Source: an uncultured Clostridia bacterium (GTDB taxonomy: Bacteria; Bacillota; Clostridia; Oscillospirales; UBA644). From it: DNA of 53,719 nucleotides. The stretch spans positions 1-53,719 of the forward strand of contig CAMZEM010000003.1 of NCBI GenBank assembly GCA_947305805.1, given 5' to 3'. Of this stretch, positions 1,969 through 44,865 are shown in pieces. Below the pieces are notes generated by a model. That model saw only the letters and a program-made list of their open reading frames with translations, was not told the origin of the DNA and did not search any database. Position 1 is the first letter of the stretch. Each line of letters opens with the position of its first letter. Made by a program: the position numbers and the translations under genes.

Positions 1969-3525
1969 ATGAAAATCGTAACGTCCGTGTTTGTGGTATC
2001 CCTCGGCTATCCGAAAGAAAACGCAAAAAAGATGACGGAAATAATGGAACAGAACGAAGGGGATATTTATCTTTTCCCCGCATACTCATTAACGGGCTCT
2101 TCGGCAGGAGAACTCTATGAATTTCCGGAATTTAAAGAACAGACCGAAGCGGCGCTCGACAGTCTTTGCGAATTTTCCGAAAAAACGGGCAAAATAATCG
2201 TTACTTCCGTTCCGTATCACGAAAACGTGATTATAAAAGACGGAATTCTTGCGGGAAAGAGTCATTTTGAACTTGAAGGCAAGACTGTTGCGGTTTCCGA
2301 AAACGGAAACGAAAATTTTGACGTCCTTCTTCTGCCTACGATCATGCCGGGCTATCCCTGCATTCAAAACGACATTATCGAATACTGTATGCGCGCTTCC
2401 GCAGTAAAAAACTGCGTTGTTGCCGTTGCAAACGGCGGTTTCGGCGAGAGCTCCGCGGATAACGTATACAAGGGCTTTTGCGGTGTTTTCAATAAAGGCA
2501 TAACGGTATCTTTTACCTCGCAGGATGCGCCCGAAACGGTAGTTTCATCAGCCGACCACACAAAAGACACGGGACTTATCTATACAAGACAGAAAGTTGC
2601 CGATTACAAAATACCGTATTACGGCAAAAACGATAAAAAACGCTATCTCGAAGAGCTCTTTTCATTGCAGACGCAGGCGCTTTACATGCGGCTTGTAAAT
2701 ACGGGCATAAAAAAAACCGTTATAAACGTTTCGGGAGGACTTGACTCCACAATGGCTCTGCTTGTTGCCGAAAATACGTTTAAAATGCTCGGATATCCCG
2801 TTTCGGACATTACCGCGCTTACACTTCCGTGCTTTTCCACGTCGTCAAGAACGAATACAAACGCAAAAAAACTTATGGAGCTTCTCGGTGTTACCGCGAG
2901 AGAGATAAACATTAAAGAATCTGTTCTTCTGCACCTGAAAGAAATAGGTCACGACGGCGTAACCGACGACGTTACGTATGAAAATTCACAGGCAAGAGAA
3001 CGCGCGCAGATACTTTTTGACGTTGCAAATCAGCAAAACGCGCTTGCGCTCGGCACGGGGGATCTTTCGGAGGCGGCTCTCGGTTTTGCAACTTACGCCG
3101 GAGATACTCTCTGCCACTACAACGTAAACGCAACCGTTCCCAAAACCGTTATGCGCGACCTTGTAACTCAGATTGCGAAAAAACGCGGCGGCGAGCTTGA
3201 AAAAACGCTTCTCGACATTGTTGACACGCCCGTTTCTCCCGAACTTAAAGACGGACAGAAAACCGAAGACATCCTCGGTCCGTACATACTGCACGATTTT
3301 ATTATCTACTACTTTGCAAAACATAAATTCCCCCGCCCGGAAATACAGAAATATATGTTTGCAACTTTTGACGAATACGACGACGATACCATAAACGCCG
3401 CGCTCGACACTTTCTATTCAAGATATTACAAAAACCAGTTCAAACGCTCTTCCGCATGCGAAGGCGCAAACCTTATCGGATTTACTCTTCCGTATATGCC
3501 CGCGGATATGAAACCGCTGGGATAA
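1969..3525 (+). CDS. nadE: NAD+ synthetase with a shortened, degenerate N-terminal glutaminase domain
   Basis: SGGLDS, ENSQARER and GTGDLSE synthetase motifs. Start set at ATG 1969 after RBS AAAGGA; the 1336 start in the ORF track overlaps tuf. Confidence 0.92.
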   Translation: MKIVTSVFVVSLGYPKENAKKMTEIMEQNEGDIYLFPAYSLTGSSAGELYEFPEFKEQTEAALDSLCEFSEKTGKIIVTSVPYHENVIIKDGILAGKSHFELEGKTVAVSENGNENFDVLLLPTIMPGYPCIQNDIIEYCMRASAVKNCVVAVANGGFGESSADNVYKGFCGVFNKGITVSFTSQDAPETVVSSADHTKDTGLIYTRQKVADYKIPYYGKNDKKRYLEELFSLQTQALYMRLVNTGIKKTVINVSGGLDSTMALLVAENTFKMLGYPVSDITALTLPCFSTSSRTNTNAKKLMELLGVTAREINIKESVLLHLKEIGHDGVTDDVTYENSQARERAQILFDVANQQNALALGTGDLSEAALGFATYAGDTLCHYNVNATVPKTVMRDLVTQIAKKRGGELEKTLLDIVDTPVSPELKDGQKTEDILGPYILHDFIIYYFAKHKFPRPEIQKYMFATFDEYDDDTINAALDTFYSRYYKNQFKRSSACEGANLIGFTLPYMPADMKPLG

Positions 3526-43859: not shown

Positions 43860-43961
43860 CTACGGTTTCAAAATATAAACGTTTATTGTAGCAATGTTTA
43901 ACGGATAGTTTAACCTATTATCAGTATGACATGTATAACACCGTATCAATTTCTTTTTCAT
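43860..43961 (-). CDS. Small ORF, 33 aa (MKKKLIRCYTCHTDNRLNYPLNIATINVYILKP)
   Basis: RBS AAAGGAG 6 nt before ATG; its TAG abuts the RBS of the lipoprotein gene. Too short for the ORF track. Confidence 0.45.
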   Translation of the reverse strand: MKKKLIRCYTCHTDNRLNYPLNIATINVYILKP

Positions 43962-44024
43962 AAGCTCTCCTTTCGTGTAAACGGTTTTTGTGGATTCGGG
44001 AAAGAGTGTTTTATTTACAATATA

Positions 44025-44056
44025 ATTATATCATAAAAACGGGGGGGGGGTGTCAA
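44025..44056 (-). promoter_or_regulatory. Sigma-A promoter with a C10 tract in a 20-bp spacer
   Basis: Minus strand TTGACA-CCCCCCCCCC-GTTTTTATGA-TATAAT, including an extended TGn. Confidence 0.75.
44041..44050. repeat. G10 homopolymer
   Basis: Ten consecutive G; I saw no comparable G or C run elsewhere in the window. Confidence 0.9.
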
Positions 44057-44128
44057 GAGGAACGGAAAACGGAAATTGTATGATGCAATAAATATGCGGT
44101 AAGCTGCAAAATTCAATGGGTGAACCGC

Positions 44129-44161
44129 AAAAAAAAATGCGGAATCGGCAACCGATTCCGC
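44129..44161 (-). terminator. Terminator after rsmG
   Basis: gcggaatcgg-ttg-ccgattccgc followed by a T9 run on the minus strand. Confidence 0.9.
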
Positions 44162-44169
44162 CTTGCGCA

Positions 44170-44865
44170 TTATTTTATCGGGGATGAAGCCGCTTTTCCC
44201 GCCCGTCTCGGATATTTTGCGGGCGTCGGGGAAAGCTTTTTTATTATTATAAGATTCCGCTCTGCCGTGCCGTAAATTTCCGCATCTCCGCCGCCGAGCA
44301 GAATAATTGCGTTTTTTGCCTCTTCAAGCTCTTCTTTTGCCATCAAGGATTTGAAAGCCGCCGTTTTTCCTCCTGTTTTCACGAGAGGCAGGCAAAGCTC
44401 GGCAAGCGTTGCCATTCTTGCAACGGCGCGGGCAAAAACTATATCAAACCGTTCGCGGTATTCGCCTCTCGCCGCATCTTCGGACCGCATTTTTGCCGTG
44501 CGGCAGTTTTTAAGCCCCGTTTGCGCGATTACGGCATCGAGAAAATCAACGCGTTTTCCGAGCGATTCTATAAGCGTCATTTCAATATCCGGCCGCATGA
44601 TCGCAAGCGGAATACCGGGAAAACCGGCGCCCGAGCCGACGTCCGCGCAGTCCGCGCCCGAAAACAGAATGCCGCTTTTTTGCGGAAGAAGACTTTCTAT
44701 AAAATGCCTTGATACCGTTTCCTCTTCCGTTTTTACGGCGGTAAGATTTATTTTTTCGGACCATGTTTTAAGCATATCAAGATAAACGGAAAACATTTCC
44801 GCCTGTTTTCCGTTTATTTCAATGCCTGCCGCAAAAAATTTTTCTGTTATCGTTTCTTTATTCAT
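44170..44865 (-). CDS. rsmG: 16S rRNA m7G527 methyltransferase
   Basis: NLTA, RHFIES, DVGSGAGFPGIPL, ARAVA and KYPRRAG. Confidence 0.96.
   Translation of the reverse strand: MNKETITEKFFAAGIEINGKQAEMFSVYLDMLKTWSEKINLTAVKTEEETVSRHFIESLLPQKSGILFSGADCADVGSGAGFPGIPLAIMRPDIEMTLIESLGKRVDFLDAVIAQTGLKNCRTAKMRSEDAARGEYRERFDIVFARAVARMATLAELCLPLVKTGGKTAAFKSLMAKEELEEAKNAIILLGGGDAEIYGTAERNLIIIKKLSPTPAKYPRRAGKAASSPIK

Follow-up and report, generated by a model that had tools for sequence, protein, structure and literature searches.

Can the length of a homopolymeric tract within one promoter set how much of a surface lipoprotein is made by an uncultured rumen Clostridia bacterium? In host-adapted pathogens, among them Neisseria, Mycoplasma and Treponema, promoters with a homopolymer in the spacer are a textbook device, and most discussion of phase variation in gut and rumen Clostridia concerns invertible DNA; a search of the literature found no report of homopolymer-spacer promoters in rumen or gut Clostridia. 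The organism studied here is known from metagenome-assembled genomes (MAGs) only, and its relatives in the genus are rumen MAGs (Tb.RUG, RGIG 'Goat_Omasum' and RUG12846 'Ruminococcaceae'). In the window, by which we mean the whole stretch of 53,719 nucleotides that was analysed, a sequence-only reading had drawn attention to a minus-strand promoter with a poly-C tract between its hexamers and had proposed that this tract is phase-variable. In this study, we revisited this promoter and examined its anatomy, its rarity in the genome, its alleles in related strains and its counterparts in the genus.

Results

Anatomy and position of the promoter

Direct reading of the minus strand of the window gives ctcTTGACA-CCCCCCCCCC-GTTTTTATGA-TATAATtatattg. 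A perfect consensus -35 hexamer, TTGACA (44056-44051), which is the same in all relatives that have the promoter, is followed by a tract of ten cytosines (C10, or G10 on the plus strand; 44050-44041), by the remainder of the spacer, GTTTTTATGA (44040-44031), and by a perfect consensus -10 hexamer, TATAAT (44030-44025). The tract lies in the spacer, touches the -35 box and is the variable element of the promoter. The string that had been described earlier, with two perfect hexamers separated by a spacer of 20 bp, proved to be exact.

The part of the spacer next to the -10 box holds an extended -10 element, TATG-A-TATAAT at 44035-44025, in which the TG of the TGn motif is at 44033-44032 and the TATG of the TRTG motif at 44035-44032. 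tTATGaTATAAT fits the TRTG-n-TATAAT pattern, the '-16' motif of Bacillota, and the tttaTGaTATAAT core is also found in other promoters of the genus, all with a 17-bp spacer. The TGn element on which the sequence-only reading had based its suggestion of a rheostat rather than a switch is real, and the suggestion itself is reasonable. A second -10-like hexamer, TATGAT (44035-44030), overlaps the spacer and lies 15 bp from the -35 box in the C10 allele.

The promoter is located in a gap of 326 bp, with rsmG and a strong terminator on one side and a 33-codon ORF on the other. The housekeeping gene rsmG (GidB; 44170-44865, minus strand; Pfam GidB, E = 3.7e-45) is the upstream neighbour and lies outside the unit, and its terminator (44129-44161, minus strand), which consists of a 10-bp stem (44161-44139) followed by nine T residues (44129-44137), insulates the promoter from upstream transcription. 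On the other side, the predicted 5' leader (43962-44018, minus strand) would start at a G at about position 44018, 7 nt past the -10 box, as judged from the sequence, and a ribosome-binding site, AAAGGAGAG, is found within it at 43973-43965. We considered a riboswitch or attenuator in this leader and rejected it: an Rfam scan from the promoter to the genes found no family near threshold, and the putative leader forms no stable structure, folding less readily than shuffled sequence (z = +2.06). A G-quadruplex or i-motif was also rejected, by reasoning, since one run cannot make an intramolecular four-run structure. No second good promoter was found before the lipoprotein gene, the sole other match being one of 9/12 at 43900-43872.

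Rarity of the tract and of its spacing

The genome assembly comprises 1.92 Mb in 169 contigs (minimum 2.5 kb, median 7.4 kb) and looks short-read. The C10 tract, with a length beyond the 7 or so residues from which a tract was counted as long enough to slip, is the longest G/C run among these contigs. Base composition by itself would predict 0.77 G/C runs of this exact length in 1.92 Mb, so that the existence of the run is not significant under this naive model. Observed and expected numbers of runs are 49 and 301 at length 6, 3 and 68 at length 7, 2 and 15 at length 8, and 0 and 3.4 at length 9; the genome strongly avoids long G/C runs, and when this empirical decay in run length is extrapolated, about 0.0007 runs are expected at length 10.

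A census of perfect TTGACA-N(12-24)-TGNTATAAT sites across the whole genome (n = 76) gave a spacer of 17 bp at 65 sites, 16 bp at five, 18 bp at five and 20 bp at a single site, which is the lipoprotein promoter. The tract therefore lies inside a spacer, that of TTGACA-C10-GTTTTTATGA-TATAAT, for which the norm is 17 bp, and the earlier remark that this spacing is out of line with other promoters extends to the genome. It follows from the census that the longest G/C run of the genome coincides with its sole perfect out-of-range promoter. The shortening to C7 that had been suggested as restorative would indeed give 17 bp.

Tract length in related strains

Further alleles were sampled from other assemblies through exact-protein look-ups, and the series that follows consists of consensus sequences, which are blind to mixtures within a population. 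The tract is C10 in the window, C9 in L094 (a contig of ERZ14210012) and C8 in five records of a sister lineage (L014, L015, L016, L028 and L032; GCA_017614415.1, GCA_017561485.1, ERZ27257290, ERZ28653431 and SRR12529213), and the flanks are identical throughout. An invariant length in related genomes had been named beforehand as the result that would speak against phase variation, and three lengths were found instead. The C7 (17-bp) allele was absent from all seven records. The five C8 records represent at least three strains, which are 0.5-1.1% apart and all have C8 and hence an 18-bp spacer; because the length is the same in all three, the tract is either fairly stable at the consensus level or held by selection.

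Over 1,425 bp, L094 shows no mismatch to the window and differs only by the change from C10 to C9 and by a change from T9 to T8. Over 3,021 aligned bp, 51 substitutions separate the window from L014, together with two indels only, one in the tract (C10/C8) and one in the tail of the rsmG terminator (T9/T8). Within the promoter and leader (43962-44138, 177 bp), by comparison, there is no substitution between the window and the sister lineage where 6.5 would be expected (P = 0.0016), an expectation derived from the 3.65% difference at third codon positions of the neighbouring genes. Lengths of 8, 9 and 10 on such a frozen background are the signature expected of slippage. Since the C9 contig has a coverage of only 2.2x and the T-run also differs, the difference between C9 and C10 could be a homopolymer calling error. 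A long-read homopolymer artefact, the other objection that the sequence-only reading had raised against itself, is unlikely because the assembly looks short-read and the relatives are MEGAHIT or SPAdes contigs, though an uncertainty of +/-1 in the length of the tract remains even for an assembly of this type.

Whenever the C-tract differs, so does the T-run of the rsmG terminator, which is T9 in the window and T8 in both L094 and the sister lineage; it is either a second slippery run or a sign of a +1 homopolymer bias in the assembly of the window. Scans for the exact flanks gave no match in JGI metagenome contigs or GTDB representative genomes, and for the lipoprotein, RsmG and HAD hydrolase of the window no record came up in exact-protein look-ups.

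The amidase remnant and the lipoprotein gene

The 33-codon ORF that follows the promoter (43961-43860, minus strand) begins with MKKKLI, which is joined in frame to the C-terminal 28 residues of an Amidase_6 protein. Its residues 6-33 are identical at 23 of 28 positions to the C-terminus of the intact 372-aa Amidase_6 of L017 (BLASTP, E = 1e-15), and the Amidase_6 domain itself (PF12671; residues 195-363 of P0012) is deleted. Judged from this alignment, the ORF is an in-frame deletion remnant and not a gene in its own right. The earlier statement that the promoter points at a 33-aa ORF and a 588-aa lipoprotein holds for the lipoprotein, whose ORF is present, and has to be amended for the smaller ORF. 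In L017 and G010, an intact Amidase_6 gene immediately precedes the lipoprotein gene. In the C8 lineage, the promoter sits directly before the lipoprotein gene, and the first 18 nt of the remnant (the six codons of MKKKLI) are the same DNA as the start of the lipoprotein gene in L014. The stop codon of the remnant overlaps the ribosome-binding site of the lipoprotein gene; both ORFs probably share a transcript, and their translation may be coupled.

The amidase gene has been lost independently in two lineages, in each of which start codons are joined to the tail, as MKKKLI+RCYTCH...ILKP* in the window and as MKNTKY* in G013/L013; the latter deletion stands behind an unrelated upstream region of 565 bp that includes a T9-containing promoter. 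The loci concerned are window 43860-43961, L017:1867-2985, L003:34-1227 and L002 at about 3320-3340. In G010, G009 and G008, the amidase is followed by a shorter lipoprotein that corresponds to the C-terminal domain alone (residues 351-588). From this arrangement, the C-terminal domain of the lipoprotein may be the functional partner of the amidase, perhaps as an inhibitor or immunity protein.

The lipoprotein gene (43843-42077, minus strand) encodes 588 aa with a signal peptide, MKYLRIPILVVLIALTMLFAS|C, that ends in the lipobox LFAS|C, from which we infer surface exposure, and with two domains (about 35-340 and 350-588). The protein has no Pfam match, and its family, which is fast-moving and restricted to this lineage, counts only 10 relatives among 1.84 billion representative proteins. 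With an AlphaFold2 model (pLDDT 68), no fold match in the PDB was found below E 0.001, and there were weak NTF2/cystatin-like hints only. The ORF is intact with a dN/dS of 0.3-0.5, and by this measure the gene is under purifying selection. Between the window and G013, dS is 0.18 for the lipoprotein gene (88% aa identity) and 1.47 for the adjacent rsmG, which argues that the lipoprotein gene has been exchanged horizontally between species. Comparison of the window with L002, L013 and L017 also indicates recent horizontal exchange of a lipoprotein cassette at the same chromosomal site, and the signal peptides of the exchanged cassettes are of three unrelated types that are all equally long (Cys at position 22).

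G/C runs in the genus and mismatch repair

G/C runs of 9 or more are present in 11 of the 16 genomes of the genus, nearly always in AT-rich promoter DNA. Eight of the 21 distinct runs of this length lie no more than 250 nt upstream of lipoprotein genes (binomial P = 2e-6 to 3e-4, with a base rate of lipobox ORFs of about 4.4%); of the remainder, some precede genes for secreted or membrane proteins and one lies within a glycosyltransferase ORF. The products behind these tracts include GH43, GDSL hydrolase, solute-binding and beta-helix proteins. G013 has another tract within a spacer, TTGA-C10-ACGTTTTTTGGTATAAT. The beta-helix lipoproteins form a family (G001, G003 and G004; L074-L091; e.g. G003:C17:21315-26112) with 15-16 paralogues per genome of roughly 725-785 aa, and the promoters of many of these paralogues read gaaattttC-Gn-TAGACA-17-TATAAT with n = 6, 7, 8, 8, 8, 9 and 9, so that here the G-run adjoins the -35 box on its upstream side. 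In one tandem pair of beta-helix genes (G003:C17:21315 and 23884), the 150-bp promoters are identical except for G9 versus G8. An exact look-up of a beta-helix lipoprotein of the genus, made for more alleles, matched its own genome only.

Some further runs were noted in passing. In the window's genome, three of the six G/C runs of 7 or more adjoin lipoprotein genes. At G000 C165:2284-2290, a G7 run makes up a Shine-Dalgarno-like stretch, with the GTG start codon of a lipoprotein gene 8 nt further on, and the G7 run at G000 C49:3379-3385 lies 45 nt upstream of another such gene. At G000 C18:111-118, a G8 run is found where the conserved region of hsdS meets the next target-recognition domain (Methylase_S, E = 1.6e-29); the conserved region contains (TAEL)x3-like repeats and ends in ...QYEYYRDQLLSFDKIGGGGT*, the first frame stopping right after the G8. 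A change of 1 nt would fuse the two halves, which makes this gene a candidate for a phase-variable specificity subunit of a type I restriction-modification system. G005 carries a repeat, attagggctatgcccgaaactgaaat-C(6-11)-gttttacGGGGGGatatttatt, at contig ends (G005:C14:28-37; G005:C17:42973-42983, L040 and L059; and upstream of L083), in which the C-run is accompanied by a complementary G6 and is 6, 10 or 11 long according to the copy.

Loss of mismatch repair was considered as a cause of tract variation and rejected. MutL is present in the window's genome, where mutL starts about 150 nt from one end of contig C162 (3,009 bp), and MutS1 (MutS_I domain), which was not found in this fragmented assembly, is present in 11 of the 16 genomes of the genus. 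The repair pathway is thus probably intact and would dampen slippage. The same genome encodes four MutS_V-only paralogues of roughly 510 aa, in two tandem pairs (C2 and C53).

Discussion

On a slight balance of probability, we favour the view that the C-tract acts as a slippage-driven promoter dial for the expression of the lipoprotein. From the sequence we infer that the promoter is used, that tract length affects expression, and that the changes are reversible and of adaptive value. According to this model, the promoter is of the sigma-A/sigma-70 type, and a poly-C tract that is prone to slippage would set the distance between its -35 and -10 boxes. During replication, slipped-strand mispairing would add cytosines to the tract or remove them, and each such change would shift TTGACA by 1 bp, or about 35 degrees, relative to TGnTATAAT. 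As predicted from the spacer census, C7 would give the optimal spacer of 17 bp, and C8, the allele of the sister lineage, one of 18 bp that should still be usable. C9 would give 19 bp, and both C9 and C10 would leave the -35 box 2-3 bp, or roughly 70-100 degrees, out of register. Because 17 bp is so overwhelmingly the norm of this genome, the 20-bp allele presumably cannot use its two boxes together; at C10, sigma would be unable to hold both, and the extended -10 element (TRTG/TGn) alone would support low but non-zero transcription, so that the device would be a dimmer and not a clean on/off switch. Through the overlapping TATGAT hexamer, which would reach a distance of 17 bp from the -35 box at C12, alleles of C11-C13 may be active again, and activity may in this way be periodic in tract length. 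The transcript would comprise a short unstructured leader, the 33-codon amidase remnant and then the lipoprotein gene. The extended -10 element also counts against the dial, since in its presence the -35 box, and with it the spacing, may be of little consequence.

The most serious alternative, which we consider rather unlikely, is that slippage here is non-adaptive and accompanies decay, so that an ordinary constitutive promoter with C7-C8 has undergone a one-way, neutral or mildly harmful expansion to C9-C10. The locus does decay, the amidase having been deleted, and the expansion is confined to the lineage that has the rearranged locus and the amidase remnant; the independent loss of the amidase in G013/L013, the fixation of C8 in three strains as far as 0.5-1.1% apart and the lack of the ON (17-bp) allele among the seven records would all fit such a history. 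A decaying region should not, however, be free of substitutions in its promoter and leader where 6.5 were expected, and the lipoprotein ORF, at a dN/dS of 0.3-0.5, has kept all of its 588 codons intact. Moreover, even the supposedly ordinary C7-C8 state would make the tract one of the six longest in a genome where G/C runs are strongly avoided, and the same design, with variable lengths, recurs at many lipoprotein promoters of the genus.

It is improbable, in our estimation, that all strains share one true length and that C8, C9 and C10 are errors of sequencing or assembly. The low coverage of the C9 contig would suit this explanation, as would the shift between T9 and T8, which goes in the same direction in both comparisons, as would be expected if the window's assembly systematically overcalled homopolymers by one residue. 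However, the five records of the sister lineage, which come from at least three distinct strains and from more than one assembler, agree on C8 without any scatter, the gap between C8 and C10 amounts to 2 bp, and the assemblies are short-read ones, as their contig names show (k141 for MEGAHIT, NODE for SPAdes), and not long-read ones. Slightly less credible still is a role of the run that is independent of its length, as a fixed structural or protein-binding element beside the -35 box, such as a site for a regulator or a stiff segment that excludes an UP element, with incidental variation. Many runs of the genus lie directly upstream of the -35 box in the conserved context gaaattttC-Gn-TAGACA, where their length would leave the -35/-10 spacing unchanged, and these are in keeping with such a role. 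The run in the window, by contrast, is inside the spacer, so that its length must alter the geometry of the promoter; it comes with neither a candidate regulator nor a palindrome, and run lengths that range over 6-10 in the promoters of orthologues and paralogues are hard to reconcile with a fixed binding site.

If the tract does dial expression, uncultured commensals that degrade fibre would generate clonal diversity in their surface lipoproteins, with phage or host pressure or bet-hedging on substrates as plausible drivers, and functionally different subpopulations would be hidden by the consensus sequences of MAGs. The window provides a clean case, with an allelic series of C8, C9 and C10 on an otherwise invariant background. 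More tentatively, and with rather more doubt than confidence, we suggest that the genus, and perhaps gut and rumen Clostridia at large, may possess a 'phasome' in which G/C runs at the edge of the -35 box, either in the spacer or abutting the box from upstream, stochastically dial surface lipoproteins, the targets including glycan-degrading enzymes (GH43, GDSL and the beta-helix family) as well as solute-binding proteins. Should this be true, a contingency-locus strategy that has so far been described for pathogens would be at work in commensal fibre-degrading monoderms.

Relation to known systems

The variable surface lipoproteins (vlp) of Mycoplasma hyorhinis, as Citti and Wise reportedly found in 1995, are controlled by a homopolymer in the promoter spacer. 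The window resembles this system in the spacer homopolymer, in belonging to a Bacillota-related lineage and in the recurrence of the design at several lipoprotein genes. The vlp tract is poly-A and not poly-C/G, however, and vlp is a clustered family of antigens with internal repeats, whereas the window has a single lineage-restricted lipoprotein beside rsmG. In Treponema pallidum, poly-G tracts at or near the -35 box of tpr subfamily II and of TP0126 are said, after the work of Giacani and colleagues in 2007 and 2015, to modulate the transcription of surface proteins; a poly-G at the -35 box resembles the Gn-TAGACA layout seen across our genus, but the phylum and the gene families are different and the tract in the window lies strictly within the spacer.

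In Neisseria meningitidis and Neisseria gonorrhoeae, the precedent is given by the fetA promoter, with poly-C between the -10 and -35 boxes, by opc, also with poly-C, and by porA, with poly-G (PMC5320596, citing Carson 2000 and van der Ende 1995); in these promoters, the spacing and, through it, the graded level of transcription depend on the length of the tract. The window shares with porA, opc and fetA a G/C homopolymer between the -35 and -10 boxes of a sigma-70 promoter, a surface-protein gene behind it and alleles that differ by 1-2 nt between strains. It differs from them in its host, an uncultured, monoderm and commensal rumen Clostridia bacterium and not a Gram-negative pathogen, and in having a perfect extended -10 element, on account of which its off-register state is probably leaky.

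This last feature links the promoter to another class. Promoters with an extended -10 element can be active even when their -35 box is poor or out of place, and the TRTG '-16 region' promoters of Bacillota were reportedly described by Voskuil and Chambliss in 1998. That class has no variable element; to its extended -10 architecture, the window adds a perfect -35 box that is out of register.
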